A stretch of DNA of 64,000 nucleotides from Candidatus Omnitrophota bacterium (GTDB lineage: Bacteria > Omnitrophota > Gorgyraeia > Gygaellales > Profunditerraquicolaceae): assembly GCA_025453395.1 (NCBI GenBank), contig JALOQK010000002.1:410509-474508 (forward strand), written 5' to 3'. A model generated the notes under the pieces. The model searched no databases. It was given only the letters and a program-made list of their open reading frames with translations, and was not told the origin of the DNA. Of this stretch, positions 24,145 to 60,063 are shown in pieces. Position numbers and translations under genes: made by a program. Every line of letters begins with the position of its first letter. The first letter of the stretch is position 1.

Positions 24145-24248
24145 ACTTCCTCCTAAAGTATTTGATATAATATTATACTATATTTTAAAGGATTTGCTAC
24201 AACAATTTTCTAGCGTATTCTTTAATTTTGACTTTTGACTTTTTACTT

Positions 24249-40453: not shown

Positions 40454-40457
40454 GAGT

Positions 40458-41105
40458 TTAACTTTTGGGGATTTTTTTATAATCTTCCAGAAAACGTTTG
40501 ACTCCAATATCAGTAAGCGGATGCTTGATCAACTGTTCAATTACCGCAAAAGGGATAGTTGCGATATCCGCCCCTTCTTTGGCGGCGTTTACCACATGCA
40601 TGGGATTGCGCACTGAGGCAACGATAATCTGCGTTTTAAACCCATAATTGGAATAAATCTGTTTTATGTCGCGGATCAGATCCATGCCTTCCAAACTTAT
40701 ATCATCAAGCCTGCCGATAAAAGGCGATATATAGGTAGCGTTGCATTTAGCGGTTAAAAGCGCCTGCGATGGAGAGAAACATAAAGTAACATTGGTCTTA
40801 ATAGATTCTGCGGACAAGATCTTGACCGCCTTTAAGCCGTCTTTGATAAGAGGTATTTTTACCACGATGTTCGGGGCGATCTTAGCCAGCACGCGCGCTT
40901 CTTTGAGCATTTCTTCAGTAGTCAGGCCAACAACTTCAGCGCTTACCGGCCCGGAAACACAGGCGCATATTTCTTTTAGAATCTGCATTGCCGGACGATT
41001 CTCCCGGGCAACAAGAGTAGGATTAGTAGTAACCCCGTCAATAACTCCCAGCTCTTGCGCCTGCTTTATTTCCTCAATGTTAGCTGTATCAATAAAGATC
41101 TTCAA
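40458..41105 (-). CDS. tal: Transaldolase / fructose-6-phosphate aldolase (short Tal/Fsa type)
   Basis: [14 protein letters not shown]...GVTTNPTL signature. It uses a TTG start preceded by a GGAGGG RBS. Confidence 0.85.
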
Positions 41106-41180
41106 TTTGTCCCTCCGGTATATATATGGCGATAATGAAAAGTATTCTATACTAAAGCAGCGGGCTTTTCAAGCAATATA

Positions 41181-41291
41181 TCAGCTTTCAGCCATCAGCC
41201 TTCAGCTTTCAGCAAAAACAAAAATACAATAAGGAAATACCCTGTTTAGTATTTATTATTTTTCTTTTAGCTGATGACTGATAGCTGATAG
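41181..41291. repeat. Empty member of the heptamer-palindrome element family: two inverted arms around a ~55-bp ORF-less core
   Basis: atcagctttcagccatcagccttcagctttcagc ... agctgatgactgatagctgatagctga. It is intergenic between tal and a GGDEF gene. Confidence 0.6.
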
Positions 41292-41295
41292 CTGA

Positions 41296-42297
41296 TTAAC
41301 CCTGACAAACATATATTCGGTTACGCCCAGACTGTTTGGCTTTGTAAAGCGCCTGATCCGCCTTATCAATTAGTTCCTCCTGCGTCCGGCCGTGATCCGG
41401 GAAGAAAGACAAACCAATGCTTATGGTGGCTTTTAGCGTCTCATCATAGGCCTTAACCATGCCCTGTTCAATTGCCTGCCTTATACGTTCAGCCACAAAG
41501 ATGGCTTCTTCCATCTTGGTTTGGGGAAGAAGCAGGATAAATTCCTCTCCGCCAAAACGGCCCAAAAGATCAACCTGACGGCTGTTCTCCTTTATGGAAT
41601 TGCAGATATGCCGCAATATCTGATCCCCAACCAAATGCCCGTAACGGTCATTGCAATTCTTGAAGTGGTCCACATCGATCATCAGTATTGCGAATGTCAA
41701 ACCAAACCTTAATGAACGTTCCAACTCTTGAGCAAACCTTTCCAGATAATAACGCCGGTTAAAAATACCGGTTAGGCTATCAACAATAGACAACTCCTGC
41801 ACCTTAAGGTATAAAAACGCGCGTTTTAAAACAAGCATGAACTGATGCGTTAATATATCAAACTTCTCGCGGTCTTTTTCAGACAAACCCTTGATCAGCA
41901 AATATCCTGCGGCAGGCGAGCCTTTTTGCAGGATAAAAGGGATAACTTCATACCCCAGGACATCTTTTAGATTAGCCGTCTGCCGGACAAACCTGCAGTC
42001 CTGAAAATCTATGTGGCGCTCAATCTCTTCGCGAAAGACCATAAAAAGCTTATCCTCATCAAGATATTTACTGATTTCTTTGGTGATGGTATAAAGTTCC
42101 ATGGTATCAGAGGCATCCCTCTCTATCAAGGCGACCTGCGCTTCAAGCTCTTTATTTTGAGCGTATAGATCATGATAATGCTGCTGCATCTGCTTAGAGC
42201 TTAGAGAAAATTTGAATAATCTTTCCCTGAACCAAAACCTCAAATAGAAAAAACAATATAAAATAAGCGATATAAGTACGGCTATTTTCATAAACAA
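41296..42297 (-). CDS. Diguanylate cyclase (GGDEF) with N-terminal TM and coiled-coil
   Basis: RFGGEEF active-site motif and a predicted RxxD I-site region. Confidence 0.85.
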   Translation of the reverse strand: MFMKIAVLISLILYCFFYLRFWFRERLFKFSLSSKQMQQHYHDLYAQNKELEAQVALIERDASDTMELYTITKEISKYLDEDKLFMVFREEIERHIDFQDCRFVRQTANLKDVLGYEVIPFILQKGSPAAGYLLIKGLSEKDREKFDILTHQFMLVLKRAFLYLKVQELSIVDSLTGIFNRRYYLERFAQELERSLRFGLTFAILMIDVDHFKNCNDRYGHLVGDQILRHICNSIKENSRQVDLLGRFGGEEFILLLPQTKMEEAIFVAERIRQAIEQGMVKAYDETLKATISIGLSFFPDHGRTQEELIDKADQALYKAKQSGRNRIYVCQG

Positions 42298-43568
42298 ACC
42301 ACCCTGTTTCTGCCTTTATCTTTGGCCTTATACAGCATCATGTCCGCCTTCAACATCAACTCTTCTTCGTTAGAAGCGTCATCAGGAAAACACGCAGCCC
42401 CTATTGAAACAGTAACACTGGTTTTTTTGCGGCGCAGCTCAATCTGTATCTGCTCAACTTCTTTGCGCATTTTCTCAGCTATCTGCTTAACTTCCGGTTT
42501 TGACATAGTAGGGATAAAAATACAAAACTCTTCTCCGCCAAAACGGCTTGCCACTGCGTCATGGCCCTTTAAGACCCCTAAAATGCATCTGGACAGCTCT
42601 CTTAAAACTATATCGCCGGCAGTATGGCCAAATTTATCGTTATAAGACTTAAAATAATCTATATCAAGCATTATAACCGAAAGGGCATGTTTTTTAGCCA
42701 AACAGCGGGCATATTCCTCTTTTAAACACTGCAAGAAATGCCCTTTGGTGTAAAGCTGCGTTAAACCATCACGCAAAGCCAGCTCTTCAGTATGCTCAAA
42801 CAACTCGCTATTTTCTAAGGCTACCGCCCCCAACTCTGATAGAGTAACCAGAAATCTTAAATCATCTTGTGAAAAACAGGACTGCTGGGAGCTTTCTAAC
42901 CTTAACGCGCCTATAAACCTGTTATTGGCGATAAGCGGCGCGATGATAACTGAAGATATACCCCTTGTCCTCTCGCTTTCTATCGCCTCAACATCAAAAC
43001 GAAAATCACTTTTAACGTCTCCAATCAAAAGAGGCGTCATATGCCTTAATACCCAAATATCAAAGATGTCACCCTGTTTCTGCTTGATCACCAGATGCCG
43101 GTCTTCTTTCTTGGTTTTGAAAATAGCCAGATTCTGCGTCTTCTGATCTATAAGATACAGTATGCAGCTGCCCCTGCTATTTCCTATTAAATGAAAGGCG
43201 ATTTCCGTCAAACAGTTAGCAGTGGTTTCCAAATCCAGGCTCTGGTTGATATCCTGCACTATCTCTTTAAGCTGGTTGTAACGGCCTATTTTTTCTTTTA
43301 GAGAAGAACGTATTGCCTGATAATGGCGGTTTTGCGCGGTAATAAGGTTGATTTTTTCTTCGCTGCGGCTTATGGCAAGCTTAAAGTTATCTTTATTGCT
43401 TAAGTAGGCCATAAAGGAAAGATAGCCTATCAAGCCGATAATAAAGTAAAACAAAAATATGATTTTTAAAGAGGAGCTGTTAAGCGGAGAGAAAAGAACA
43501 AGCGGAATTCCGATATAGGCAAACGGCAAAAGGTAATTATAGAAACCTGCGCTATTATTCTTGGGCAC
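42288..43568 (-). CDS. Membrane-anchored GAF-GGDEF diguanylate cyclase
   Basis: Two N-terminal TM helices, a GAF-like sensory domain and a C-terminal GGDEF domain (RFGGEEF). Confidence 0.8.
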   Translation of the reverse strand: MPKNNSAGFYNYLLPFAYIGIPLVLFSPLNSSSLKIIFLFYFIIGLIGYLSFMAYLSNKDNFKLAISRSEEKINLITAQNRHYQAIRSSLKEKIGRYNQLKEIVQDINQSLDLETTANCLTEIAFHLIGNSRGSCILYLIDQKTQNLAIFKTKKEDRHLVIKQKQGDIFDIWVLRHMTPLLIGDVKSDFRFDVEAIESERTRGISSVIIAPLIANNRFIGALRLESSQQSCFSQDDLRFLVTLSELGAVALENSELFEHTEELALRDGLTQLYTKGHFLQCLKEEYARCLAKKHALSVIMLDIDYFKSYNDKFGHTAGDIVLRELSRCILGVLKGHDAVASRFGGEEFCIFIPTMSKPEVKQIAEKMRKEVEQIQIELRRKKTSVTVSIGAACFPDDASNEEELMLKADMMLYKAKDKGRNRVVCL

Positions 43569-43610
43569 GATTTATTTTAACACTAAGATTAGCAAAGAAT
43601 CAAGAAAAGA

Positions 43611-44744
43611 TTAGGCTATAGCCTCTTCGGTGTCTTTGGCAAAAAAATGCACCTTGCTCATGTCAAAAACAACATCTATGTCCTGATTTACCCGCGGCCG
43701 ATTGTGGGAGGCGACCCGGGCGATAAAGGTATGCTTTCCGGTATTAAGGTGCAAATACACTTCCGAGCCCATAGGCTCAACTACCTCACAAGTAACCCTA
43801 ACAATATTCTCCGCAGGCGCCTCTGAAACAAAAAGCTTGTCATAGATATCTTCGGATCTTATTCCTAACACAACCTCTTTTCCGCTGTAAGCAATAATCC
43901 TACTATACATATCTTCCACTATCTTGACTTTAATAATCCCCTCGTCAAAATAAAATTTTCCATCTTTCTTAATAATCTTTCCGTTGATGAAATTCATTGG
44001 CGGGGAGCCGATAAAACCTGCCACGAACTTATTTTTCGGCTGGTCATAAATGGTGATCGGATCAGCCACCTGCTGGATCACTCCTTCTTTCATAACCGCG
44101 ATCCTATCCCCCATAGTCATGGCCTCAATCTGATCATGGGTAACGTAAATAATCGTAGTCTGTAAACGAATATGCAATTTATGTATTTCGGTGCGCATAT
44201 TAACGCGAAGCTTCGCGTCAAGGTTGCTTAAGGGTTCATCAAAAAGAAAAACAAGCGGCTTTCTGACAATCGCCCTGCCTACAGCTACACGTTGACGCTC
44301 TCCGCCTGAAAGCTCGCGCGGCTTACGGCCCAAAAGATGTTTTAAGCCCAATATCTGCGCGGCATCATTTACGCGCTGGATAATCTCCTGCTTGGGATAA
44401 TGCCTTAACTTCAGCCCAAACGCCATATTCTCAAAAACAGTCATATGAGGATAAAGGGCGTAATTCTGAAAAACCATAGCGATATCCCGGTCTTTTGCCG
44501 GCACATCGTTGACCATTTTATCGCCGATATAAATACTGCCTTCGCTTATTTCTTCCAGGCCGGCGATCATCCTTAAGGTAGTGGATTTGCCGCAGCCGGA
44601 AGGCCCCACTATAATCATAAACTCTTTATTCTCTATACTTAAGTTTATCCGCTCAACGGCCCTGGTGCCGTTGGGATAGATTTTGGATATATTATTTAAG
44701 CTTACCTGCGCCATTTCATCCTCATTATTAACAAAAATATTCAA
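43611..44744 (-). CDS. ABC transporter ATP-binding protein of the MalK/UgpC sugar-importer type with C-terminal TOBE domain
   Basis: Walker A GPSGCGKST, Q-loop, signature LSGGERQRV and Walker B FLFDEPLSNLD. The ~140-aa C-terminal regulatory domain is also present. Confidence 0.8.
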   Translation of the reverse strand: MNIFVNNEDEMAQVSLNNISKIYPNGTRAVERINLSIENKEFMIIVGPSGCGKSTTLRMIAGLEEISEGSIYIGDKMVNDVPAKDRDIAMVFQNYALYPHMTVFENMAFGLKLRHYPKQEIIQRVNDAAQILGLKHLLGRKPRELSGGERQRVAVGRAIVRKPLVFLFDEPLSNLDAKLRVNMRTEIHKLHIRLQTTIIYVTHDQIEAMTMGDRIAVMKEGVIQQVADPITIYDQPKNKFVAGFIGSPPMNFINGKIIKKDGKFYFDEGIIKVKIVEDMYSRIIAYSGKEVVLGIRSEDIYDKLFVSEAPAENIVRVTCEVVEPMGSEVYLHLNTGKHTFIARVASHNRPRVNQDIDVVFDMSKVHFFAKDTEEAIA

Positions 44745-45567
44745 GCAGACGGCTTAATGACTGTTTCATATCCTTACGGTTGACAATCATATCAATCATG
44801 CCGTGCTCTAAAAGAAATTCTGAACGTTGAAATCCTGGGGGAAGTTTCTGGCGAATAGTCTGCTCAATGACCCTGGGGCCGGTAAATCCGATCAAAGCCT
44901 TTGGTTCAGCAACCGTAATATCCCCCAAGGCGGCAAAAGAAGCCATAACTCCTGCCATAGTAGGGTTGGTCAAAACAGATATAAACAATAATTTGGCTTT
45001 ATGGTGATAGGAAAGAGCAGCCGATGTTTTTGCCATCTGCATGAGGCTGAACATCCCCTCATACATCCTCGCCCCGCCGCCTGAACCAGAAACGATAATA
45101 ACTGGAAGCTTCTTTTTGGTCGCGCTTTCTATAGCCCGGGTTATTTTCTCTCCCACCACAGAGCCCATTGAGCCCATAATAAAACGCGAATCTGTTGCCG
45201 CGATAACAACTTTCCTATTATCCAAAAGCCCTTCCCCTGTGACAGCAGCATCTTTTAATCCGGTTGCATCCTGATCCTGCTTGAGTTTTTCCTTGTATGT
45301 CTTTGGCCCCTTAAAATCCAAAGGGTCAGATGATAGCATATCTTTATCGTATTCCTCAAAGGTGGGCTTATCGATTAAAAGATTCACTCTTTCATAAGCG
45401 CCTAAAACAAAATGAAAATTACATTTGGGGCAGACTTTAAGATTTTCTTCTAAGGTCTTATTGTAAAGCGGCTGGGAACACTCTTCGCACTTGGTCCAAA
45501 GACCCTCAGGGATCTCTTTCTTCTTCACTCGCACAATTGTGTACTTTGGTTTTCCAAATAGCGCCAT
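44728..45567 (-). CDS. accD: Acetyl-CoA carboxylase carboxyltransferase beta subunit
   Basis: N-terminal C4 zinc ribbon (CEECSQ...CPKCNFH) followed by a carboxyltransferase domain. Confidence 0.85.
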   Translation of the reverse strand: MALFGKPKYTIVRVKKKEIPEGLWTKCEECSQPLYNKTLEENLKVCPKCNFHFVLGAYERVNLLIDKPTFEEYDKDMLSSDPLDFKGPKTYKEKLKQDQDATGLKDAAVTGEGLLDNRKVVIAATDSRFIMGSMGSVVGEKITRAIESATKKKLPVIIVSGSGGGARMYEGMFSLMQMAKTSAALSYHHKAKLLFISVLTNPTMAGVMASFAALGDITVAEPKALIGFTGPRVIEQTIRQKLPPGFQRSEFLLEHGMIDMIVNRKDMKQSLSRLLEYFC

Positions 45568-45582
45568 ATTTACCTCATAACC

Positions 45583-46857
45583 CTAAAACTTATTGATCAC
45601 CAAACCTGAAAGTACTTTTGGATAAAAATAGGTTGATTTTGAAGGCATCCTTTCGCCTCTTAAGGCAACATTGATGATCTCTTCCATCTTCGCAGGGTTT
45701 AAAATAAAAACTATTCCCCCTGGCTCTTTATCAAGCTTGCGCATCAATTCCTGCGCATCGTGATGAAAGATTATTTTACTTTTATCCTCTATATCCATGC
45801 CTAAGGCCTTATTTAAAACAAGGTAATTAAATATGCATACCCCCAGCCTTCTATATTCTTTGGGCTTATCCGCAATTACCTTATCTAAAATCTTAATATT
45901 TTTCAATCTCAACAGCCAGAATTTCTTGTCTATATACATGCCGATGACCTGCTCGTTCATAGCGGCCTTCTGCATAAGAAAGGTAAAACGCGCAGAATCC
46001 TTAACCTCTTCTACATCAAAATTTTCTCTTAAAAGCTCTTTAAAGGACTCAAAGTTAAACCCCGATGGCAGATGGACAAAGCGATGAATAGGAAGAATAC
46101 TTAACCCCCGCGCGTCGGTATTAGTAAAATAAGTCATCAGGTAATTAAACCCTTCGGCCCCGTCCAAAGAACCCAATTTCTTGCGCATGTGCTCCCGATA
46201 AAGGCAGGCCACTTCATAACGATGGTGCCCGTCGGCAATAAATATTTCTTCGTCCTGCATCTTAGATTGTATGCTCTTTAATAATTCCGGTTCGTCCACT
46301 CTCCAGATCTTATGCTTAACGCTGTCAGGGTCAACAACCTGCATAGAGCACGGCAAATTCTTTATATAAGACGAAAACACCTGGCGGATAACTCGTTTCT
46401 TGTCGGGGAATATGGCAAAAATCGGGCTTAAATTGGCATGCACCTTAGAAAGTAATTTAAAGCGGTCTTCTTTGGGCTCGCAACGGGTATATTCATGCTT
46501 GAATACGGGGGATGATTTATCCTCTAACTCTAAAAGCGAGATAAAACCAAAACGGGTCTTCTTTTCTCCTAGAATATTATATTCCTGGCTATAAAAATAT
46601 ATTGCGGGTTTGGCATCTTTGGTCAGGATATCCTGCTTTATCCAATCCTGAAACATCCTTCCCGCGCGCGCGTATTTATCATCATCCGGGATATCCTTGC
46701 CTAAAAGCAAATGGATTAAATTATAGGGGCTTTGTTTATGGTAAAATTCCTGCTGTTTCTGGGAAATAACGTCATACGGAGGGCAAGTAACCCGAGATAA
46801 ATCTGCTACCTTATTCTGGTTATAGACTAAAGCGCTAAAGGGTTTTATTTTTGCCAT
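45583..46857 (-). CDS. DUF1015-family conserved protein
   Basis: 424 aa. The N-terminal IKPFSALVY...CPPYDVIS pattern resembles DUF1015; no catalytic motifs are recognisable. Confidence 0.45.
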   Translation of the reverse strand: MAKIKPFSALVYNQNKVADLSRVTCPPYDVISQKQQEFYHKQSPYNLIHLLLGKDIPDDDKYARAGRMFQDWIKQDILTKDAKPAIYFYSQEYNILGEKKTRFGFISLLELEDKSSPVFKHEYTRCEPKEDRFKLLSKVHANLSPIFAIFPDKKRVIRQVFSSYIKNLPCSMQVVDPDSVKHKIWRVDEPELLKSIQSKMQDEEIFIADGHHRYEVACLYREHMRKKLGSLDGAEGFNYLMTYFTNTDARGLSILPIHRFVHLPSGFNFESFKELLRENFDVEEVKDSARFTFLMQKAAMNEQVIGMYIDKKFWLLRLKNIKILDKVIADKPKEYRRLGVCIFNYLVLNKALGMDIEDKSKIIFHHDAQELMRKLDKEPGGIVFILNPAKMEEIINVALRGERMPSKSTYFYPKVLSGLVINKF

Positions 46858-46862
46858 ATATT

Positions 46863-47120
46863 TTACTGGTGATGCTTACAAGAAGCGCATCCATCTTTAC
46901 TTTTTGGACAGGTTTCCGGGACAGGCGCCTTGGAAGGGCTCTTTTTGTAATCTGTGGCATAAAAACCTGACCCTTTAAAAATAATCCCTGAACCGCTTCC
47001 GATAAGCCGGCGCAGTTTTTTCTTGCATTTAGGGCAAGACTTGAGTGGCGCTTCAGTCATCTTCTGGACAACCTCAAAACGATGCGCGCAAGACAAGCAT
47101 TCATATTCATAAGTAGGCAT
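46863..47120 (-). CDS. FmdB-family zinc-ribbon protein
   Basis: MPTYEYECLSCAHRFEV...CPKC is the characteristic FmdB/CxxC-x17-CxxC zinc ribbon. Confidence 0.7.
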   Translation of the reverse strand: MPTYEYECLSCAHRFEVVQKMTEAPLKSCPKCKKKLRRLIGSGSGIIFKGSGFYATDYKKSPSKAPVPETCPKSKDGCASCKHHQ

Positions 47121-47129
47121 TAATTACTC

Positions 47130-48284
47130 CTATCTAAAAGTCTTTCGTATCCTATCTGTAAAACTGTCTTTGCCGGTGCCTTCCGGTGAAACGCGGGCGA
47201 ATTCTTCCATTGCCTTTCTTTGTTCCTGATTTAAATTTCTGGGTATTTCCACGTCAACCTTGACTAATTGATCGCCGATTTCTCTTGTATGCACGTCTGG
47301 CATGCCTTTTTCTTTAAGCCTGAATACGCTTGCGGATTGCGTTCCGGCAGGGATCTTCATAGAAACTTTGCCAGAAAGAGTAGGCACTTCTACTTGCGCG
47401 CCTAAAACAGCTTTTGCAAGGCTGACCTTGATTTCTGTGATAAGGTCGTTTCCATGGCGCTCTAAGAACGGATGGGCAGATACTTCTATCGCCACATACA
47501 AATCCCCTCTGCCAGCTGTCCCGTATTCACCTTCCTGCCTGATCCTAAGATTAGACCCCGTATCTACGCCCGCGGGGATCTTGACTTTTATTTTACGGGT
47601 AACTTTAACCCTGCCTTGGCCCTTGCATTCCGGACAGGCAGATTGGATAACACTTCCTTCACCTGAACAGGCAGTACAGGTTTGCGCCACCTGAAAGAAG
47701 CCATTAGAGGCAATTATTCTACCACTGCCCCGGCATTTAGAGCAAGTATTTTTCTTGCTTCCGGGCTTAGCCCCTGTGCCAGAACAAACTGCGCATACTT
47801 CGTAACGGGGCAGATTAATCGTCTTTTCAACACCCTGATAAGCCTCTTCCAGGGTTATATTTACGGCGATCTCTAAATCTCGTCCTCTGCGGCTGCGGTT
47901 GCCGCGCCGGCCTTGGGAGCCAAAAATATCAAACCCTAGGTCACTAAAGACTTCCTCAAATAGTCCTCCCCCAACCCCAAAATCACCCATCCCCTGAAAA
48001 ACACTGTTAAAATCCGCGCCCTTAAAGATATCCTCATAAGCGTATTTCTGGTCAATGCCTGAATGCCCATATTGATCATATAAGGCGCGCTTATTGGCGT
48101 CAGAAAGAATAGCATAAGCTTCGGAGATCTCTTTAAATTTCTCCTCGGCTTCTTTTTTCTGCTCTTGAGGCACACGGTCAGGATGAAAGCGCAAGGCCAT
48201 CTGACGGTACGCGTTCTTTACCTCATCCAGGCTTGCGCCTTTTTTGATCCCCAGGATCTCGTAATAATCACGTTTGGTAGACAT
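47130..48284 (-). CDS. dnaJ: Chaperone DnaJ
   Basis: J domain (DYYEILG...HPD), G/F region, four CxxCxGxG zinc-finger repeats and a C-terminal domain. Confidence 0.9.
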   Translation of the reverse strand: MSTKRDYYEILGIKKGASLDEVKNAYRQMALRFHPDRVPQEQKKEAEEKFKEISEAYAILSDANKRALYDQYGHSGIDQKYAYEDIFKGADFNSVFQGMGDFGVGGGLFEEVFSDLGFDIFGSQGRRGNRSRRGRDLEIAVNITLEEAYQGVEKTINLPRYEVCAVCSGTGAKPGSKKNTCSKCRGSGRIIASNGFFQVAQTCTACSGEGSVIQSACPECKGQGRVKVTRKIKVKIPAGVDTGSNLRIRQEGEYGTAGRGDLYVAIEVSAHPFLERHGNDLITEIKVSLAKAVLGAQVEVPTLSGKVSMKIPAGTQSASVFRLKEKGMPDVHTREIGDQLVKVDVEIPRNLNQEQRKAMEEFARVSPEGTGKDSFTDRIRKTFR

Positions 48285-48372
48285 AGAAGCGTAAAGGTTA
48301 AAGCGAAAAGCGTAAAACCAAAATTTAAAATTTTAAATTGTAGTTTTGCGCTTTACGCTTTTAGTTTTTAGT
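48285..48372. repeat. AT-rich palindromic element (family 2) in the dnaK-dnaJ intergenic space
   Basis: aaagcgaaaagcgtaaaaccaaaatttaaaa / ttttaaattgtagttttgcgctttacgctttt inverted arms. It is ~85% identical to the arm at 57340-57385. Confidence 0.6.
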
Positions 48373-50259
48373 TTACTTTTTATCATCCTCTTCTTTGAAC
48401 TCTGCGTCAATCACATCTTCCTTTTTTTCTTCTTTTTTCGGTTCCTCTGTCGCCGGCCCTCTATCTTCTGACTTCTGGCCTGCGTCTTGCGCCTTCTGCT
48501 GCTTCTGCGAAGCCTGCTTATAAACCTCTTCAGCCAGTTTATGCGAAGCCTTGCTTAAATCGTCCATGGTCTTCTTAATACGCTGCACATCCTTTTCTTT
48601 GATCGCGTTCTTAACATCATTAGCCTTCGCTTCAATATCCGCTTTTTCCTCCTGGCTTATTTTGTCTCCGAAATCGCGAAGTGAGCGTTCTGTGGCATAG
48701 ACAAAATTATCCGCCTGGTTAGTCACTTCCACAAGTTCCTTTTTCTTAACATCATCAGCGGCGAATTTCTCCGCGTCTTTAACCATCTTATCAATTTCTT
48801 CTTTGGAGAGCTTCTTAGGCGCTGTAATGCGCACAGATTGCTCTTTCCCTGTGCCGAGGTCCTTGGCTGAAACATGCACAATGCCATTGGCGTCAATATC
48901 AAAAGTAACCTCTATTTGAGGAACGCCTCTTGGAGCGGGAGGAATACCTACCAGATCAAACCTGCCCAGCTCTACATTATCATCAGCCATGGGCCTTTCG
49001 CCCTGCAAAACCCTAATAGTTACCGCAGTTTGATTGTCCGCGGCAGTAGAAAATGTTTGGCCTTTTCTGGTAGGAACAGTAGTATTTCTCTCAATAAGTT
49101 TAGTACTTACTCCACCCAATGTTTCAATGCCCAAAGATAGCGGAGTAACGTCCAGCAATAATACATCTTTGACTTCGCCTTTCATAATTGCCGCCTGGAT
49201 TGCCGCTCCCATTGCCACGCATTCCATAGGGTCAACCCCGCGCTCAATTTTCTTGCCGATGTAATCCTCAACAAATTTCTGCACAATAGGCATGCGCGTG
49301 GGCCCGCCGACCATAATCACGCGATCAACATCAGAAGCCTTAAGCTTGGCATCAGAAAGCGCCTGTTCCATAGGATGTTTGCAACGATCAATAATAGGAG
49401 ATACCAAGTCTTCAAGCTTAGCGCGGGTTATAGACATCGTCAAATGCTTAGGCCCCGCGGCATCAGCAGTAATAAACGGCAGATTTATATCAGTTGAAAC
49501 TGTGGAAGAAAGCTCCACTTTTGCCTTTTCTGCTGCTTCACGTAATCTCTGCACTGCCATTTTGTCATTACGCAAATCAATTCCGGATTCACGCTTAAAC
49601 TGGTCCATGATATGGTTAATCAAAACGTTATCCATATCAGTTCCGCCCAACTGCGTATCCCCGGATGTTGACTTTACCTCAAAGACGCCTTGCGCCATTT
49701 CCATAATAGTAACGTCAAGGGTACCGCCGCCTAAATCAAAGACCATTATTTTCTGTTCCTTTTGGGATTTTTCCAAGCCATAAGCCAAACACGCTGCCGT
49801 AGGTTCATTGATTATGCGCAAGACTTTCAATCCGGCGATCTCCCCTGCGTCTTTAGTGGCAGTACGCTGGTTATCATCAAAATAAGCCGGGCAAGTAATA
49901 ACCACCTCTTCAACTTTATCGCCCAGATAGGCTTCGGCGTCCTGTTTTACTTTCTGCAGGATAAACGCGGAAATCTGCTGCGGCGAATACTCTTTGCCAA
50001 ATGCCTTAAAATGATAGTCGCTTCCCATCTTACGCTTGGCAGCCTGAATAGTCCCTTCAGGATTGATTGCCGCTTGACGACGCGCTGGCTCGCCGACAAG
50101 GCGCTGTCCGTCTTTGGTAAAAGCCACATAAGACGGAAACGCCTTGCCTGATGCCACCCCTGCTCCTTCCGCAGAAGGAATAATTACCGGCCTACCGCCT
50201 TCCATCACCGCTGCAGCTGAATTCGAAGTACCTAAATCAATACCGATTACTTTTGCCAT
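48373..50259 (-). CDS. dnaK: Chaperone DnaK (Hsp70)
   Basis: [14 protein letters not shown]... with all Hsp70 signatures. The start is set at MAKVIG, 7 codons inside the ORF-track start. Confidence 0.95.
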
Positions 50260-50383
50260 ATCAATACCCTCCTTGAGCACATAAAGTTTTTGTCCAGCGA
50301 AAATCCGACGAGTGCATTAAAATCTCATGCTCTTTGAAATTTTAATGCATTTTACGAGTCGGAGTAAATTAAAACATAGCCTA

Positions 50384-50914
50384 CTATTCATTGCTTCTTT
50401 TAGAAACCTTAACTTTCGTAGTTCTTATTACCCTATCATTCATCAAATAGCCCTTCTGCATTTCCTCTAAAACCGTGTGCTCCGGCAAATCCTTATTTTC
50501 TTCCTGCATAAGCGCTTCATGCAAATGCGGATCAAAAACTTTTCCTTCTGCTTCAATAGGTTTGACTCCATAGCTTTTCAATAATTCATACAAATGCGCC
50601 AAAATCATTTCTACGCCTTTGACAAAATTCGTAACCTCAGGATGCTGTTTCTGCTCTGTGGCTACCGTGCGCTCCAAGTCATCAAGGATGTTTAATAAAT
50701 CCACGATCAGGCCTTCATTAGCAAACTTGGCAAATTCCTGCTTTTCTTTGTCCATGCGCTTGCGGGTATTCTCAAAATCCGCCTGCAAACGCAAGATCCG
50801 GTCAGAATAATCCTTGGCTTGTTCTTTTAAGGCCAGGTACTCTTCTTCGGGAATGGTAATTTCCCGCTTCTTTTCTTCTTTGTGCTCTTTCTTTTCCTGA
50901 TTACTCATAATCAT
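50384..50914 (-). CDS. grpE: Nucleotide exchange factor GrpE
   Basis: RLQADFENTRKR...coiled-coil and a GrpE C-terminal beta domain. Confidence 0.9.
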   Translation of the reverse strand: MIMSNQEKKEHKEEKKREITIPEEEYLALKEQAKDYSDRILRLQADFENTRKRMDKEKQEFAKFANEGLIVDLLNILDDLERTVATEQKQHPEVTNFVKGVEMILAHLYELLKSYGVKPIEAEGKVFDPHLHEALMQEENKDLPEHTVLEEMQKGYLMNDRVIRTTKVKVSKRSNE

Positions 50915-51653
50915 TTAGCTCCTCTAGGGCATCGGATAAAGAATCTGAAATATACTCCAAGGCAGGGATAATATGATTATATTCCATGCGCATGGGGCCC
51001 AAAACCGCGATTTTCCCCAAAGTCTTCTTGCCGGCCGAATAATTGGAAATAACAATCGCGCATCTTTCTACCTCCGGACAGCCTAGTTCATCGCCTATAT
51101 AAATCTTGACCTTATCATCAAAATCACGATTAATTATATTGAAGAAGCGTTGCTTATCTTCAATTAAACGGACAATATTTCTTATCTGCCCGGCATCCTG
51201 AAATTCCGGCTGTTCCAGCATAGAGCTTATGCCCTTATAAAACAGCCTTTTGTCTTGGTTGATAACCGAAGCTATGCCGGCGTAATGCGTAACAGCGCTT
51301 AAGACATCGGTTGTCGCCTCTAACAGATCTTCGAGCTTCTGCAGCTTTTTCTTATATTCGTTGCCAATACGCTCTTTTTCGCCGTCTAAAAGCTGCATCT
51401 GCTGAATCAGTATATCCACGTAATACCGATACCCCTTAACCGTAGGGATTCTTCCTCCGGAAGTATAGGGATGCGTTAAATAACCTTCGTCCTCTAACTG
51501 CTTAAAGATATTGCGTATGGTAGCGGAACTAAGCTCAAAATTGCGGGCAAGATCATCCGAAGATACTGGCTGTGCCTTCTTGATATAAAGGTTTATCACC
51601 TGTGCCAGAACCGCTTTCTTCCTGTTTTCAAAATCTATGTTTTTATTCATCAT
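50901..51653 (-). CDS. hrcA: Heat-inducible transcription repressor HrcA (short form)
   Basis: N-terminal winged-helix (RKKAVLAQVINLYIKKAQPVSSDDLA...SSATIRNIFKQLEDEGYLTHPYTSGGRIPT). A CIRCE element lies directly upstream. Confidence 0.85.
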   Translation of the reverse strand: MMNKNIDFENRKKAVLAQVINLYIKKAQPVSSDDLARNFELSSATIRNIFKQLEDEGYLTHPYTSGGRIPTVKGYRYYVDILIQQMQLLDGEKERIGNEYKKKLQKLEDLLEATTDVLSAVTHYAGIASVINQDKRLFYKGISSMLEQPEFQDAGQIRNIVRLIEDKQRFFNIINRDFDDKVKIYIGDELGCPEVERCAIVISNYSAGKKTLGKIAVLGPMRMEYNHIIPALEYISDSLSDALEELNDYE

Positions 51654-51661
51654 AGTTTAAA

Positions 51662-51688
51662 TTAGCACTCTTTATCTAAGATTGCTAA
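51662..51688. promoter_or_regulatory. CIRCE operator (HrcA binding site)
   Basis: TTAGCACTC-tttatctaa-GATTGCTAA has one mismatch to the consensus TTAGCACTC-N9-GAGTGCTAA. It lies 9 nt upstream of the hrcA start. Confidence 0.8.
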
Positions 51689-51694
51689 CGGGTA

Positions 51695-51722
51695 ATTCTA
51701 ACATAAATCACCCCTTTGTCAA
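51695..51722 (-). promoter_or_regulatory. Sigma-70-like promoter of the hrcA-grpE-dnaK-dnaJ operon
   Basis: On the minus strand TTGACA-N16-TAGAAT lies immediately upstream of CIRCE. Confidence 0.5.
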
Positions 51723-51733
51723 TAGGCACTTCC

Positions 51734-53935
51734 TTATCGAATTACAAATTTTAGCCCCTGGTCCGCCTGCACATCCACGATAATTTTCTTTGCCAAATAA
51801 GTTTTATGCTCTAAAATCTTTAAGGCCAAGGGATCCTGAATATATCTATTTATCGCGCGCTTCAGCGGCCGGGCGCCAAAATTAATGTCAAACCCTTGTT
51901 CTAAAAGAAATTCTTTGGCCTTACTTGTAACCTCTAAAGTAATCCCAAGGCTCAACATCTTTTCATAAAGCGGCTCTAACTGCAGATCCACGATCTTTAA
52001 CAATTCAGCTTGCCTTAAGGAATTAAAAACCACAATATCATCTAAACGGTTGATAAATTCCGGACGAAAGAATTTGCGCACCTCTTCCATAAGTTTATCT
52101 TTTAGAAATACAGCGTTGTCTGCGGCTTTCTGGGCCTGCTGTTGAATAATATCCTGCCCAATATTAGAGGTCATAATAACTACGGTATTTCTAAAATTAA
52201 CTACCTGCCCATGGCCATCCGTAAGCCTGCCGTCGTCCAAGACCTGCAAAAGAATATTAAAAACATCCGGGTGCGCCTTTTCAATTTCATCAAGAAGGAT
52301 CACCGCATACGGCCTTCTTCTTATTTTCTCGGTCAATTGCCCGCCTTCATCATAGCCTACATACCCGGGAGGAGCTCCGATAAGCCGCGACACGCTGTGT
52401 TTTTCCATATATTCAGACATATCTATACGGATAAGCGCGTCATTATCGTCAAATAAAAATCCTGCCAACTCCTGCGCCAGCTTTGTTTTGCCTACGCCTG
52501 TGGGCCCTAAGAAAATAAAAGAGCCTATGGGCCTGCGCTCATCCGCTAAACCGCTTTGCGAACGCCGGATAGCCGCGGCAATAGTTTCTACTGCCTGATC
52601 CTGGCCGATAACGCTGGATTTAAGGCGCTGTTCCATTTTGAGCAATTTCTCTGCGTCTTGCTCCTTAAGTTTGGCAAGAGCGATACCAGTTGACTCAGAA
52701 ACCACATTAGCAATATCATCGTCATCAACCTCTTGCCTTAACATAGGGCTGCCCTCGGAAATCTTTTCTAATTCATCGTTTTTCTTATTTAACTGTGCGC
52801 CCAGATCCACCAACTCTCCATATTTAATCCGCGCGGCCTTTTCCAAGTCCCCGGTTTTTTCAGCAGAATGAGCCTGATTCTTTAATTGTTCGATTTTCTC
52901 TTTAATATTCTGGATACTGACAATCACCGCCTTTTCCTTTTCCCATCTTTTTTTCTTTTCCTCAAGCTCTATCTTTAAAATTGACAAATCCTGCTCAATT
53001 TTATTCAATCGGTCCTGCGAATCCTTTTCTATTTCTTTTTTCAAGGCCTGCCTCTGGATTTCAAGCTGCAGGATTTTTCTCTGCAGGTTATCCACCTGCG
53101 CAGGCATACTGTCTATTTCAATACGCAGGCGGCTGGCGGCTTCATCAATCAGATCCACAGCTTTATCCGGCAAATGCCGCTGATTAATGTAGCGCGCTGA
53201 CAACTTAGCCGCAGCAATTAATGCCGAATCTTTAATGCGCACCCCATGATGCACCTCATATTTCTCTTTAAGCCCGCGTAAAATCGCAATTGTATCGTGG
53301 ACACTTGGCTCTTCCAGGAATACCGTCTGGAACCTGCGCTCAAGCGCGCGGTCTTTTTCAATATACTGCCTGTATTCATCAAGAGTAGTCGCTCCGATAC
53401 AACGTAACTGCCCCCGGGCAAGCATGGGCTTTAGCATATTAGAAGCGTCAATGGCCCCTTCTGCCGCACCTGCTCCCACAATAGTATGCAGTTCGTCAAT
53501 AAAAAGAATTATTTCCTTGTCCTTTTCCTGTATTTCTTTTAAAACTGCCTTGAGCCTGTCTTCAAATTCGCCGCGGAATTTTGCTCCGGCAATAAGGCTT
53601 CCCAGATCCAAAGAAACAATCCTCTTGTTTTTTAAACCCTCCGGGACATCATTAGAAACGATCCTCTGGGCTAAACCTTCAACTACCGCGGTTTTGCCCA
53701 CTCCCGCCTCTCCGATTAAAACCGGATTATTTTTTGTCCGGCGGGAAAGAACCTGCATTAACCGCCTTATTTGAGAATCCCTGCCAATTACCGGATCAAG
53801 TTTCATCTGCCGGGCAAGCGCGGTAATATCCTGCCCATACTTTTCCAGGGCGCTTGATCCTTCTTGGGAGTTCTGCTCTTGTTCAATTCTAAAATCCTCC
53901 TGGCCCATCTTAAATTCTCCTTTCACCATTAGCAC
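51734..53935 (-). CDS. clpB: ATP-dependent chaperone ClpB lacking the N-terminal domain
   Basis: Two AAA+ modules ([17 protein letters not shown]; [15 protein letters not shown]) separated by a long coiled-coil M-domain. At 733 aa it is much shorter than the ~860 aa of canonical ClpB, and it begins at the NBD1 linker region. Confidence 0.85.
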
Positions 53936-53978
53936 TCTGATATATTGAGTGCTAACATAAAAATAAAAAAAATTTACC

Positions 53979-54236
53979 CTAAACTTCTTTTTCCAAAATA
54001 ATTTTTATTCCGTGGATATTCACTTTTTTCTCCTCCATGAGATAATGCACGTACTCTAATCGGCGCATATCCTTTAAAGAATAAAGCCTGCTTTTCTTAC
54101 CTACTCTTTTGGGCTTAACCACTCCTGCCTTATCCAACTGCCTTAAAGTCCATACCGGTAAATCCACCAATTTGCTCACAATGCTTATTACATAAACTGG
54201 TTCATCCGGGCTTATCTGAATATCAAACAAAGGCAT
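53979..54236 (-). CDS. hspR: MerR-family heat-shock regulator HspR-like (DNA-binding domain only)
   Basis: PVYVISIVSKLVDLPVWTLRQLDKAGVVKPKRVGKKSRLYSLKDMRRLEYVHYL closely follows the HspR N-terminus pattern (PVYVIS.a..L.g....TLRqYDrlGLv.P.R..g..R.YS..D). It is encoded immediately upstream of clpB. Confidence 0.65.
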   Translation of the reverse strand: MPLFDIQISPDEPVYVISIVSKLVDLPVWTLRQLDKAGVVKPKRVGKKSRLYSLKDMRRLEYVHYLMEEKKVNIHGIKIILEKEV

Positions 54237-54283
54237 GAAATTCTCCTGATTTCGGCGTGCCTATGGGGTTTACTCCGAAATAA

Positions 54284-54302
54284 CACTTTGCTCTGCAAAG
54301 TG
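54284..54302. promoter_or_regulatory. Perfect 8-3-8 palindrome upstream of the hspR-like gene, a candidate operator
   Basis: CACTTTGC-tct-GCAAAGTG sits ~50 nt upstream of the hspR-like start. It is not the Streptomyces HAIR consensus sequence. Confidence 0.35.
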
Positions 54303-54360
54303 CTTTCTAGTTTATTTACAATAAGAGAATAGCACAACCCAACTATTCTGTCAAGCAAAA

Positions 54361-55671
54361 TTAATTATTTTTGTTAGATATTCTAACAGTTATCCCCATC
54401 TTCTTATCCAACAACAGCTTATCTGCTAATACTTTAGTCGTAACCAGCTTGATCTCTACGCTTTTATTAAGGTATTTAATCTGTTCAACCTTGCCCATTT
54501 TGTAAATCATATTCACCAAATCCATTCTCCCCTGCGCAAGGGTTAAATCTAACTTCACCATCCTTGCGCTAAACACCTGGGTGATTTTTTCTAATAATTT
54601 ATCTATATTCTTACTCGTCAAAGCAGAAATTGCCACAGAATCCGCATAAGTGCTCAACAGATTATCTAAATACTGCTGATCAGGCACAAGGTCAATTTTG
54701 TTTAATACGGTGATAGTTTTCTTGTCTTCTAATTCCAATTGCTTCAAAACATCTAATACCGCCAGATACAATTGTTCGCTTTTGTGATGGCTTGCGTCCA
54801 AAACGTGCAAAAGCAAGTCCGCCTCAATGGCCTCTTCCAAGGTGCCATGAAATGCCTGGATTAAATGATGCGGCAGATTATAAAGAAAACCCACGGTATC
54901 TGAAATAATTATCTGCTCTTTATTCAAAAGGGAGAGGTTGCGCGATAAAGGATCAAGGGTTGTAAAAAGGCTGTTCTGGACCTTCTGCCCGGCAAAAGTT
55001 AAAGTATTAAGAAGCGTTGATTTACCGGCATTAGTATAACCCACAATCGCCACAACCGGAATGTCATTTTCTTTTCTTTTCTTGCGCGCAACTTGCCGAT
55101 GCAAAGACAATCGCGCCAGCTGCTCCTTTAGTTTATCAATTCTTGCGCGCACGCATCTTCGGTCTGTTTCAAGCTTCTGTTCACCGGGGCCGCGCGTACC
55201 AATGCCTGCACCCAGCCGCGACAACCAGGGGTCACTGCCCACAAGCCGCGGCAGAAGATATTCCAATTGCGCCAACTCCACTTGCGTTTTTCCTTCCATG
55301 CTCTTGGCATGCCTGGCAAAAATATCCAAGATAAGCTGGGTGCGGTCAATTACTTTCTTGTCCAACACCTCTTCAAGATTGCGCTGTTGGGTGCCGGACA
55401 AATCCACATTAAAAATTACCGTCTGAACGTCATATTCAGATGCCAAAGCTTTCAATTCTTCGGCTTTGCCCTTACCTATATATAGATTGGGGGTGATTTG
55501 TTTTAGCATGCAGGGGATCGTATCTACCGGCTCTGCGGAAGCTGTATCCGCAAGCTCTTCTAACTCAAGCGCCATATCCTCAAGCGCCCAGCCAGATTCA
55601 TCATCATATTCTTTTACTACGATTAACAATGCTCTTTCTTTCATTACCCTAACTTTCCAATCTGTTGGCAA
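54361..55671 (-). CDS. hflX: GTPase HflX
   Basis: HflX N-terminal domain followed by a G domain ([17 protein letters not shown]). Confidence 0.9.
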
Positions 55672-56575
55672 TAAGCTTAGAGATAGCGGACGGCTTATCC
55701 TTTGCCTTGATTTCTATCCAACATAAACGCTTATCTTTTCTAAACCAAGTCAGCTGGCGCTTAGCATATAAACGGGTATTATGCTTAATCCGCTCTAAAG
55801 CTTCTTCCAATAAACACTCATCCTTTAAGTAAGAACCAATTTCAGAGATTCCTATGGCAAAGCTGGCGGTTCGGCTTGTTTTCTTCTTTAATAAATCCTT
55901 CACTTCTTTTAATAATCCCGACTTTTGCATTTTATTTACCCGCTTATCAATGCGAGAATACAAATCTTTCCTGTCCATATTAAGACAAAAGGCTTTAATA
56001 TCATAACTATCCGCCAAGCCGCTTCTTTGTTTCTGCAAAAAAGATATTTTCTTGCCCGTACCCAGAAAAACTTCCAGTGCCCGTATAACCCGCTTCAGGT
56101 CATGGGGATGGATCTTAGCTGCCGCCTCTTTATCGGTTTTTAGCAATATCTGATACAAATATTCTTTGCCCTTGTCTTGGGAAAGCTTATATAGCCGGGA
56201 ACGGATTTTTTCCTGCTCTGGAATTTTAACTTCAAAAATGCCGTCCAGCAAAATAGACATATAAAGCCCTGTGCCGCCAACAAGAATCGGGGTTTTTCCG
56301 CGCGAAAAAATATCAATTATTGCCGCATTGGCTTGTTTACGGTACCGCGAAACATCATATTCACAAGTTACCGGAACTTGTTCAAATAAATGATGCTTGA
56401 CTTGCCTCTTAAATTTATCTTCAGGAGCAGAATTCAAAATATTCATTCCCTGGTAGACTTGCATGGAATCACAACAGACAATCTCGCCGTTTATTTTCTT
56501 TGCCAGGCAATAAGCGACCGCGCTTTTACCCGAAGCTGTAGGCCCAACAATAAAAATAATTCTTTTTTTCAGCAA
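55649..56575 (-). CDS. miaA: tRNA dimethylallyltransferase
   Basis: [16 protein letters not shown]-loop with a MiaA core. Confidence 0.9.
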
Positions 56576-56622
56576 AGCATTCCTCTCATACTAAAACCAA
56601 AAGATTTTGGCATAAACATCTA

Positions 56623-57411: not shown

Positions 57412-57475
57412 GTTTACATTTTAACTTTTAAACTTTAGCTTTACGTTTTTCGTTTTGCGCTTTAAGCTTAACTGA
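57340..57475. repeat. AT-rich palindromic element (family 2) overlapping the start of the SPOR-domain gene
   Basis: The caaagcgaaaaatgtaaaaccaaaacttaaaattaaaaatttaa arm lies inside the signal-peptide coding region. The complementary T-rich arm (tttacattttaac...tttttcgttttgcgcttt) lies in the 5' UTR. Confidence 0.55.
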
Positions 57476-59099: not shown

Positions 59100-59178
59100 A
59101 ACCTTCGCTTCTTTTTGCCTAAAATGTCACATACATTCACAGGTCTGCCTGCGGCAGACAGGCAGGCGCCCCTATTAT

Positions 59179-59940: not shown

Positions 59941-60063
59941 TTTAATCCTTTCTTACAATTTAATTAGAACTTTCATTTTAAGGGAACTGGCCTTATGACA
60001 ATATTCCTGCTTACACAACTTAAAAATATTTTTCCTATTCATTTAACACAGCGCAATAATAAA

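Follow-up and report, generated by a model that had tools for sequence, protein, structure and literature searches.

The window, meaning the whole analysed stretch of 64,000 nucleotides (nt) from contig JALOQK010000002.1 of a Candidatus Omnitrophota bacterium, carries the heat-shock genes hrcA, grpE, dnaK and dnaJ, and the element under study is the spacer between the last two. All genes around the spacer lie on the minus strand, and its 88 nt fill exactly the distance from the TAA stop codon of dnaK to the ATG start codon of dnaJ. The spacer is identified here, with high confidence, as a short-loop ("solo") palindrome of 7-nt units belonging to a dispersed repeat family, the AAAGCG type. Loci used for comparison are designated by L numbers, and the coordinates of features in the window are given in Table 1.

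The dnaK-dnaJ spacer and a second locus

Two arms of 38 nt each (48293-48330 and 48331-48368) make up the spacer palindrome and are 82% complementary with zero gap between them. The spacer has a GC content of 28% and termini reading AGCG...CGCT, and the first modelled base of its minus-strand arm is the final base of the dnaK stop codon. Its predicted RNA fold has a free energy of -25 kcal/mol (z = -4.1) and none of 200 dinucleotide shuffles was as stable, bearing out the near-perfect hairpin described in the initial annotation, although as an imperfect palindrome. In RNA the stem consists of helices of 6-7 bp interrupted by a 1x1 mismatch at each seventh position, and a lag-7 periodic tract covers 48299-48383.

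The spacer arm recurs, as had been noticed for approximately 57340-57385, where a miaB-like radical-SAM gene adjoins a SPOR-domain gene. The ungapped comparison of 57337-57386 with the spacer arm gave 42 of 53 identities, and 35 of 40 in the core (48300-48339 versus 57344-57383). Searching the window with 20-mers from the arm, allowing at most 3 mismatches, returned 3-4 matches where 0.02-0.03 were expected. A partner arm of 50 nt with 78% complementarity is located at 57414-57470. On its own the fold of this second locus is not better than that of shuffles (z = -1.65), and the element is counted as real because both arms match the family profile described below (E = 4.9e-9 and 4.7e-5), not for its fold.

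The partner arm had been assigned to the 5' untranslated region (UTR) of the SPOR gene at 57415-57470. The arm does exist, but the UTR label is largely wrong: positions 57428-57470 are the last 14 codons and the stop codon of the miaB-like open reading frame (ORF; ending ...VKLKAQNEKRKAKV), and only a 16-nt non-coding gap (57412-57427) follows the stop at 57428-57430. The A-rich arm here encodes the Lys-rich C-terminal tail of the miaB-like protein together with its stop codon (KLKAQNEKRKAKV and stop), a tail approximately 8 amino acids (aa) longer than in relatives. The T-rich arm encodes SPOR residues ~10-27 (VKFLILSFGFTFFALSFSFV), which form the hydrophobic core of the signal peptide. The SPOR ORF starts 27 nt before the T-rich arm, and the MKRQREKA codons of the hairpin's apical region supply the positively charged n-region. 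The paired part of the coding sequence corresponds to SPOR codons ~9-27 and not to the first ~15, as initially proposed, and the AUG of the SPOR gene falls within the apical loop. The signal peptide (MKRQREKAVKFLILSFGFTFFALSFSFVSRVYA, followed by LD) is longer than in relatives.

In relatives the miaB-like gene, which lacks the TRAM domain, mostly ends ...LQK.ISKRKKC with its stop codon overlapping the SPOR start by 4-20 nt, and the element has a patchy distribution at this junction. The TRAM domain is absent from the miaB-like protein in the window and in most Omnitrophota relatives inspected (L003-L043), the protein ending soon after ...LILELQK.IS. Loss of TRAM through insertion of the element was considered and rejected, since TRAM-less genes with the same endpoint are the norm in relatives.

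The AAAGCG-type family and its cassettes

A 27-nt degenerate pattern was searched against metagenome contigs and matched at least 120 of them. A profile hidden Markov model was then built solely from 120 metagenome arms and run on the window with a reporting threshold of E<=10. Its matches in the window were exactly four, namely both arms of the two loci, with E-values of 1.9e-11, 2.5e-10, 4.9e-9 and 4.7e-5. Beyond the window the same profile matched L034 (E 3.6e-5) and, more weakly, L031 (E 0.03) and L029. Each arm is an ordered array of approximately eight non-identical 7-nt units of the form AAANNNN, 50-60 nt in total, and the consensus of 120 arms aligned in register reads aAAgCta AAAACtt AAAGCGa AAAGCGc AAAACcA aAAcTTA AAAtTcA AAACTT. 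Strong conservation with a 7-nt period is also seen in columns beyond the search pattern, and the AAA phase is kept in 105-119 of the 120 arms; the units are unlike and in fixed order, in contrast to a slippage run. The two arms face each other, so that the order A-rich arm, short loop, T-rich arm is the same on both strands.

The repeat family proposed in the initial annotation is thus genuine and far larger than could be seen there; a motif confined to the two places in the window would have spoken against it, and at least 120 contigs carry the motif. Among the matches listed (734 kb of metagenome loci, median GC 0.38), the arms numbered 198 and included 51 pairs of an A-rich with a nearby T-rich arm, the commonest loop length being ~8 nt, and 62 elements were located between co-directional genes, 8 between divergent and 3 between convergent genes. 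Solo elements measure 87-140 bp and are inverted repeats over their whole length, and the gene pairs that flank the same element are many and unrelated. Of 48 complete elements, about 14 fit exactly between two genes, with the upstream stop codon at most 8 nt from the 5' end and the next start codon 1-16 nt past the 3' end. The upstream stop is usually a TAA belonging to a GCGTAAAGCG unit. A promoter cannot be accommodated in such an exact stop-to-start fit, so that co-transcription of the element must follow. The exact 19-mer core had no matches in 80 GTDB loci, L034, L031 and L029 being weak relatives found by profile only. In viral contigs the 19-nt core gave 76 single matches, each covering only the searched-pattern part of the profile, and these were dismissed as background. 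Rfam at its gathering threshold gave no match at either locus. The literature on heptamer or palindromic repeats of Omnitrophota and on dispersed elements with TIGR02436/S23p, of which our coverage was incomplete, yielded no description, and the AAAGCG-type palindromes are apparently a large, undescribed family.

Full-length members of approximately 450-510 bp were found in L249, L171, L258, L180, L161 and L268. Their arms are 340-405 nt apart and enclose a gene for a TIGR02436/PF05635 four-helix-bundle protein of ~115 aa (E ~1e-28), known as S23p or 23S rRNA intervening-sequence protein (IVP), of the type ..LLRSATSIGANIIEAQASSSKKDF..YWL.LL...ILGSSILTLKGxNKF followed by the stop. The cassette ORF starts at the inner end of the A-rich arm and its stop codon lies within the inner end of the T-rich arm (AAG TTT TGA ATTTTAA). 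In solo copies whose loop is ~20 nt long, the first ~3 codons of this ORF and its last ~4 are retained. In the solo copy of L182, for example, aaaattgag is joined to agaaaaagttttgag, and in the full-length copy of L161 the same aaaattgag is followed by cta...ggcaaaag and then atagttttgag. L198 and L215 are partial-deletion intermediates, and short-loop copies such as the dnaK-dnaJ spacer, which has no ORF, are the most reduced. The deletion junctions shared with IVP-bearing copies, together with profile E-values down to 2e-11, argue for common descent, and the short members are internal-deletion derivatives of the full cassette in the way that MITEs (miniature inverted-repeat transposable elements) derive from insertion sequences.

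Cassettes of a sister family, bounded by inverted CAGCTNT/GCTGAWA arrays, are present twice in the window. Their two IVP genes (PF05635, 23S_rRNA_IVP) are 94% identical at the aa level, are both frameshifted and lie between sugar-nucleotide epimerase genes; in the copy at 34100-34492 the 5' array doubles as coding sequence for the C-terminal tail of the epimerase (gene 34412-35425). The JGI-called ORF of these IVP genes is 120 aa long and differs in frame from an 82-aa ORF starting with ATG. The IVP gene was co-oriented with the flanking genes in all cases compared, namely 11 cassette-bearing loci and the two copies of the window. The polarity of the sister family is reversed, the T-rich arm coming first, and its CAGCTGA-type arms also form the dnaK-dnaJ hairpins of L006, L007 and L045.

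The dnaK-dnaJ site was compared among relatives with DnaJ identities of 65-75%, which are nearly all metagenome-assembled genomes (MAGs) of Candidatus Omnitrophota. Their spacer is either 0-13 nt long (often 2-6) or 60-150 nt, and the long form is nearly always a long hairpin with arms usually made of tandem 7-nt units that differ in sequence by lineage (besides the CAGCTGA type, AGCGTAT in L012, CACACGA in L050 and L054 and GCTAAGG in L060, with L029 nearest to the window). L002 (Logan SRR12684589) is identical to the window at both loci. The closest relative found, L172, is syntenic with 82% identical DnaK and 77% identical DnaJ, and its spacer (547-733) holds approximately 19 tandem TTTAACC units bracketed by short inverted GGTCATA-type units, a sign that 7-nt repeats turn over very fast here. 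The differing spacer sequences among relatives thus indicate a site of rapid turnover and not a conserved regulatory sequence. Loci outside the Omnitrophota (L041, L065, L074) have classic hairpins with a GC stem and U-tract in the same spacer. Bacterial-type dnaK-dnaJ genes are carried by L069, L075, L078 and L081, from Methanosarcinales, Methanoperedens and Methanobacteriota MAGs. In L069 the miaB-like and SPOR genes are adjacent as in Omnitrophota and the hairpin formed by its dnaK-dnaJ spacer contains repeated GTGACA-like motifs. These four look like Omnitrophota contigs mis-binned in archaeal MAGs; Omnitrophota attached to methanogens have been reported, which would lend interest to such contigs.

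Ten of 203 arms were found inside long ORFs, and in all ten the ORF starts at most ~72 nt from the arm, giving N-terminal translation. About eight of the ten share a frame that yields LSF(S/G)F(T/A)L(Y/F)A(L/F)SF, and several have a K/R-rich n-region derived from the loop or the A-rich arm, for example MKRKVQSEERKVKVQSLKLLVLSFGFALFAFSFTLACYA in L225. The proteins concerned belong to unrelated exported families (ApbE lipoprotein, LptC/OstA-like, metallophosphoesterase-like and SPOR proteins). Since the Lys codons AAA/AAG are complementary to the Phe/Leu codons TTT/CTT, an in-frame palindrome running from A-rich to T-rich arm gives a charged segment followed by a hydrophobic one. The T-rich arm likewise encodes the signal-peptide core in the SPOR orthologue of L172, where a small insert of the GGGATCCCG type is nested as well, and the SPOR signal peptide of L031, where the match is weak (E 0.03), is probably arm-encoded as well. 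The suggestion that the SPOR signal peptide was captured from a repeat, offered initially as an alternative, therefore holds, and these cases suggest that in-frame palindromes have repeatedly given rise to, or taken the place of, the signal peptides of unrelated exported proteins. Fusions of the Yersinia MITE YPAL have also been predicted to form signal peptides (PMC2229807). A second small palindrome of ~50-65 nt (core ...TTCCCGC...GCGGGATCCCGC...GCGGGAA) is nested at the centre of AAAGCG palindromes in L172, L237 and L247, and at 7340-7395 of L172 it lies within the sequence coding for the SPOR N-terminus. The unrelated contigs L163, L176, L246 and L264 share a GC-rich hairpin, GGGTCGGATTTATCCGACCC, a short way past single AAAGCG arms, which may be another dispersed element or a terminator.

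Periodicity of 7 nt extends beyond the AAAGCG type. Scanning for lag-k self-identity of at least 70% in 35-nt windows revealed 16 lag-7 tracts in the analysed stretch versus 0-3 at each other lag from 3 to 12. Among the matches listed, the metagenome loci had 228 lag-7 tracts versus at most 27 at other lags (3.1 per 10 kb) and the Omnitrophota MAG loci 39 versus at most 5 (0.39 per 10 kb), and in the other phyla sampled the tracts were rarer (0.07 per 10 kb). All tracts of the window have the form AAANNNN or its complement, represented by the unit families AAAGCGN, AAAAGTN, AACCAAA, TCCCAAA, AAATTNA and GCTGAWA/CAGCTNT, and the majority of the larger spacers separating co-directional genes are taken up by them. 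The T-rich repeats that had been noted as related to the spacer arms (24215-24248 and 35590-35640) do exist and share the 7-nt AAANNNN architecture; they constitute a related class and not the AAAGCG family, as the profile reported neither at E<=10. The palindrome at 35431-35560, 130 nt of AACCAAA/CACCAAA units with a loop of ~40 nt that fills the spacer before gene 34412-35425, is presumably the "first" palindromic family of the initial annotation. Two of the three internal tracts of the miaB-like gene coincide with 13-aa insertions unique to this window and the third is in a region of variable length; a fourth tract forms the extended C-terminal tail. One 7-nt array is translated twice, as the C-terminal tail of the epimerase encoded at 34412-35425 (QLSAVSLQPSAKNK...) and as the insertion 58276-58333 (QLSAVSCQPSAKGEK). 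Units of 7 nt are over-represented among simple sequence repeats (SSRs) of bacterial intergenic DNA, as reported for Xanthomonas, cyanobacteria and Beggiatoaceae (PMC4692102, PMC4679880).

Operators of the CIRCE type (controlling inverted repeat of chaperone expression; TTAGCACTC-N9-GAGTGCTAA) were found at 51662-51688 and 53929-53955, and no CIRCE match was found in the dnaK-dnaJ spacer. The former has one mismatch and lies just upstream of hrcA, with a strong sigma-70-like promoter (TTGACA-16-TAGAAT) at 51722-51695; the latter has no mismatch and overlaps the GTG annotated as the start codon of a clpB-like gene (51734-53935). A weak promoter-like site (48410-48382) is situated upstream of the spacer hairpin, inside the end of dnaK. 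At 28355-28437 on the minus strand a c-di-GMP-I-GGC riboswitch aptamer was identified (Rfam RF03167, 61.1 bits versus a gathering score of 59).

Table 1. Coordinates of genes and repeat features in the window
Feature	Position	Strand	Basis and remarks
dnaK	48373-50280	minus	Pfam HSP70, E = 2.5e-232; upstream of the spacer element
dnaJ	47130-48284	minus	Pfam DnaJ, DnaJ_C, DnaJ_CXXCXGXG; downstream of the spacer element
hrcA; grpE	50901-51653; 50384-50914	minus	Pfam
dnaK-dnaJ spacer, solo AAAGCG-type palindrome of 7-nt units	48285-48372	minus	palindrome, fold, lag-7 tract
Spacer arm, A-rich on + strand	48287-48339	+	nhmmer, metagenome-only profile, E = 1.9e-11; 3' U-rich arm in the mRNA
Spacer arm, A-rich on - strand	48322-48373	-	nhmmer, E = 2.5e-10; 5' arm in the dnaK-dnaJ mRNA
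SPOR/TPR protein gene, signal peptide encoded by arm	56623-57411	minus	Pfam SPOR
miaB-like radical-SAM gene, without TRAM domain	57428-58789	minus	Pfam, comparison with relatives
Second locus, family arm	57332-57384	+	nhmmer, E = 4.9e-9; minus-strand complement is the T-rich arm
Second locus, partner A-rich arm	57419-57469	-	nhmmer, E = 4.7e-5
Second locus, apical region of hairpin	57385-57418	-	part of the 16-nt gap, SPOR ATG (57409-57411), codons for MKRQREKA
Sister-family full cassette, inverted CAGCTNT/GCTGAWA arrays	1678-2073	minus	arrays 1678-1721/2026-2073; IVP gene 1761-2009
Second copy of sister-family IVP cassette	34100-34492	minus	arrays 34100-34143/34445-34492; IVP gene 34183-34431
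AAAAGTN 7-nt array directly after gene stop	24213-24260	minus	lag-7 scan
AACCAAA-type palindrome (35431-35560) and AAAAGTN array (35591-35649)	35431-35649	minus	jointly fill an intergenic spacer
Inverted pair of AAATTNA-type 7-nt arrays, intergenic	13902-14114	minus	lag-7 scan
CAGCTNT/GCTGAWA solo palindrome, loop ~50 nt, between co-directional genes	41175-41298	minus	lag-7 scan
Three in-frame 7-nt tracts within the miaB-like coding sequence	57957-58001, 58276-58333, 58445-58495	minus	lag-7 scan, relatives

Origin and possible role of the spacer element

The dnaK-dnaJ spacer is probably best explained, with some reserve, as a cargo-less, MITE-like stem of a cassette of the intervening-sequence (IVS) type bounded by arrays of 7-nt units. 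The reserve reflects the joint weight of two parts, the identity of the element and its effect at the RNA level; confidence in the latter is moderate to low. The spacer copy would be an essentially selfish or neutral insertion, tolerated because it fits exactly between stop and start codon, and would be transcribed within the hrcA-grpE-dnaK-dnaJ mRNA. As IVS stems and the hairpins of Correia and ERIC suggest, its RNA duplex of ~26 bp may act as a substrate of RNase III and as a stabiliser of 3' ends, uncoupling the fates of the dnaK and dnaJ mRNAs. As the base of the hairpin joins the dnaK stop and the dnaJ start, coupling by termination and reinitiation could persist, which relatives, as we read them, reach with spacers of 2-6 nt.

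Several points weigh against this explanation. The RNase III cleavage, mRNA stabilisation and translational coupling of the spacer are predicted by analogy. No consistent target-site duplication was present at 13 inspected element ends, and no clean pair of empty and filled orthologous sites was found among relatives, though orthologous spacers differ. To our knowledge the TIGR02436 four-helix-bundle protein, the sole product of the longer relatives, is no known transposase. The 64-kb window contains just two AAAGCG-type loci, in an extra 10 kb past its low end on the same contig neither arms nor lag-7 tracts were detected, and no full-length AAAGCG-type copy was seen in this genome (window and 10 kb). 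Of the family members only the window and L172, plus L034, are anchored in Omnitrophota, the matches in L029 and L031 being weak. Finally, arm complementarity within elements exceeds that across elements by little (0.727 versus 0.689, p = 8e-4), and no consensus structure emerged when RNAalifold was run on 31 complete elements. The RNAalifold result is accounted for by slips in register of one 7-nt unit, which disrupt the pairing of columns; the small excess and the lack of a consensus structure together give little sign of selection on pairing beyond the arm consensus.

The location of the element in a heat-shock operon, its AU-rich stem with periodic mismatches that could melt gradually, and a 3' arm ending 16 nt short of the dnaJ AUG, with positions -18 to -1 partly paired (probability of being unpaired ~0.4), would suit a dedicated cis-regulatory RNA, that is, a thermometer or translational repressor hiding the dnaJ or SPOR start and melting on heat shock, as the initial annotation envisaged. 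The predicted folds make this very improbable. From 15 to 55 C the accessibility of dnaJ changes only from 0.38 to 0.48 (-18 to -1) and from 0.48 to 0.68 (AUG to +12), the core spacer stem is still part of the minimum free energy structure at 45 C, and the SPOR AUG, in its loop, is unpaired with probability 0.83-0.89 at 15-45 C and 0.80 at 55 C. Nor were the hallmarks of ROSE or fourU thermometers found, as no Shine-Dalgarno sequence is visible and the accessibility of the start region is near-flat from 15 to 55 C. The same element moreover stands between many unrelated gene pairs, relatives have unrelated sequence or 2-6 nt in the dnaK-dnaJ spacer, CIRCE is already present upstream of hrcA and clpB, and no Rfam family matched. 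That the spacer is a partial factor-independent terminator or attenuator after dnaK, setting a high DnaK to low DnaJ ratio as in other phyla, is unlikely too, even though GC-stem and U-tract hairpins occupy the same spacer in L041, L065 and L074. The 3' arm is U-rich, each CGC clamp being followed by a UUU(U) run, and canonical terminators are not enriched in the region (25 versus 20.9 +/- 4.5), so that another structure may serve. A consensus scan of 40000-59999 nevertheless gave no call at the spacer, whose stem is AU-rich with mismatches. Furthermore, in exact-fit copies the next gene begins 1-16 nt past the stem without room for a promoter and would be silenced by strong termination, and the U-rich 3' arm is not a general feature, given that the sister CAGCTGA family has its T-rich arm first.

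Local 7-nt slippage, that is SSR expansion and inversion with neither a common origin nor a link to IVP, would agree with the known excess of 7-nt SSRs in the intergenic DNA of bacteria (PMC4692102), with the run of ~19 TTTAACC units in the same spacer of L172 and with the in-frame 7-nt insertions of the miaB-like gene. It is nonetheless improbable in view of unlike 7-nt units kept in the same order over at least 120 contigs, including columns outside the search pattern, of profile E-values down to 2e-11 and of deletion junctions shared with IVP-bearing copies. Only slightly less doubtful is an array for protein binding at the DNA level, perhaps by a pentameric IVP protein, with a role in nucleoid organisation or in maintenance or mobility of the element. 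Its AAA is strictly phased each 7 bp, sequence is conserved more than pairing, and two different 7-nt families show physical linkage of the IVP gene to arrays. Arrays of 7-bp units, direct or inverted, are the target of the omega repressor of plasmid pSM19035, and Avd, a protein of diversity-generating retroelements homologous to the IVP protein, binds nucleic acid. Against such an array, solo copies persist in regions without a nearby IVP gene, and the 7-nt unit sequence varies widely between families. Chance complementarity in AT-rich, strand-skewed sequence, finally, is refuted. Lys codons (AAA/AAG) are inherently complementary to Phe/Leu codons (TTT/CTT), and the fold of the second locus does not beat its shuffles. 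The spacer fold (z = -4.1), the motif counts (3-4 versus 0.02-0.03), the E-values of an independent profile and the lag-7 enrichment all speak against chance.

Significance and relation to known systems

A broader joint reading, in which 7-nt-array cassettes with an S23p/IVP gene are an unrecognised class of mobile element and the rRNA IVSs a special case of it, is put forward as a tentative and rather doubtful possibility. If it were true, the cassettes would enter the transcribed spacers of operons co-directionally, across Omnitrophota-like bacteria, and the IVP protein would recognise the phased 7-nt arrays and be needed for spread or maintenance. Decayed solo stems would then be co-opted as RNase III or coupling hairpins and as in-frame signal peptides, the A-rich arm giving a Lys/Arg n-region and the T-rich arm a Phe/Leu h-region. 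For the origin of IVSs, a multicopy gene-in-stem architecture outside rRNA and a series from full cassette through partial deletion to solo copy make the mobile-element idea testable. For the uncultured and poorly studied Omnitrophota the elements represent a concrete class of structured spacer elements, and repeats that contain stops, starts, tails and signal peptides matter for gene calling, for operon and transcript models and for the assembly of MAGs. For protein evolution they would offer a route from selfish DNA to a protein-targeting sequence.

The closest parallels to the full cassettes are the IVSs of 23S rRNA in Coxiella, Leptospira and Salmonella. The Coxiella IVS has a 28-bp stem of terminal inverted repeats that is cut by RNase III, carries S23p in the loop and has, from the cut site to where S23p starts, two or three tandem 7-nt repeats that vary between strains; how the IVS and its S23p ORF arose, whether they are mobile and what they do are described as unclear (PMC4990558). 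Common to the IVSs and the present cassettes are the inverted-repeat stem, a co-oriented TIGR02436/PF05635 ORF in the loop, 7-nt repeats and frequent decay of the ORF, here seen as the frameshifted IVP copies of the window. Unlike the IVSs, the present elements are found in spacers of protein operons and even overlap coding sequence, their arms are ordered 7-nt arrays of 50-60 nt in place of a simple 28-bp stem, and cargo-less derivatives are abundant. The insertion sites of IVSs, helix 25 or 45 of 23S rRNA, are not involved here, Rfam showing no rRNA in the window.

Effects on mRNA processing and stability have been reported for MITE hairpins such as Correia and ERIC (PMC2229807). Like ERIC/IRU, Correia/NEMIS, YPAL/RU-2 and RUP, which are multicopy palindromes of ~90-130 bp located mostly between co-directional genes and co-transcribed with them, the solo elements are apparent internal-deletion derivatives of a longer element and are occasionally translated. 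With 87-140 bp and at least 198 arms in 120 contigs they also fall within the size and copy range of MITEs (50-500 bp, multicopy, terminal inverted repeats). In contrast to those MITEs, neither a target-site duplication nor TA termini were found here and the parent element has no recognisable transposase. We know of no description of internal 7-nt periodicity with a mismatch at every seventh pair for the ERIC, Correia, YPAL or RUP families.

Rickettsia palindromic elements (RPE) resemble the present elements in being palindromes tolerated in frame within conserved protein genes, the counterparts here being the miaB-like tail, the SPOR signal peptide and the 7-nt insertions in surface loops. 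Sequence, phylum and architecture are unrelated, and the elements described here are mostly intergenic with coding use mainly as N-terminal sequence or C-terminal tails. Extragenic palindromes at gene ends that stabilise mRNA are also known as REP/BIME, mobilised by RAYT; these are however 20-40 nt long and GC-rich with GTAG/CGTC heads (PMC3733652), none of which occur here, where arms measure 50-55 nt. The heptameric SSRs (cyanobacterial STRR, GGGAATC of Xanthomonas and TAACTGA of Beggiatoaceae) share the 7-nt period, are intergenic and sometimes inverted, and often lie just upstream of start codons (PMC4679880, PMC4692102). They consist of one identical or near-identical tandem unit, whereas the arrays described here have a fixed order of units, an inverted pairing rule and a linked gene cargo.

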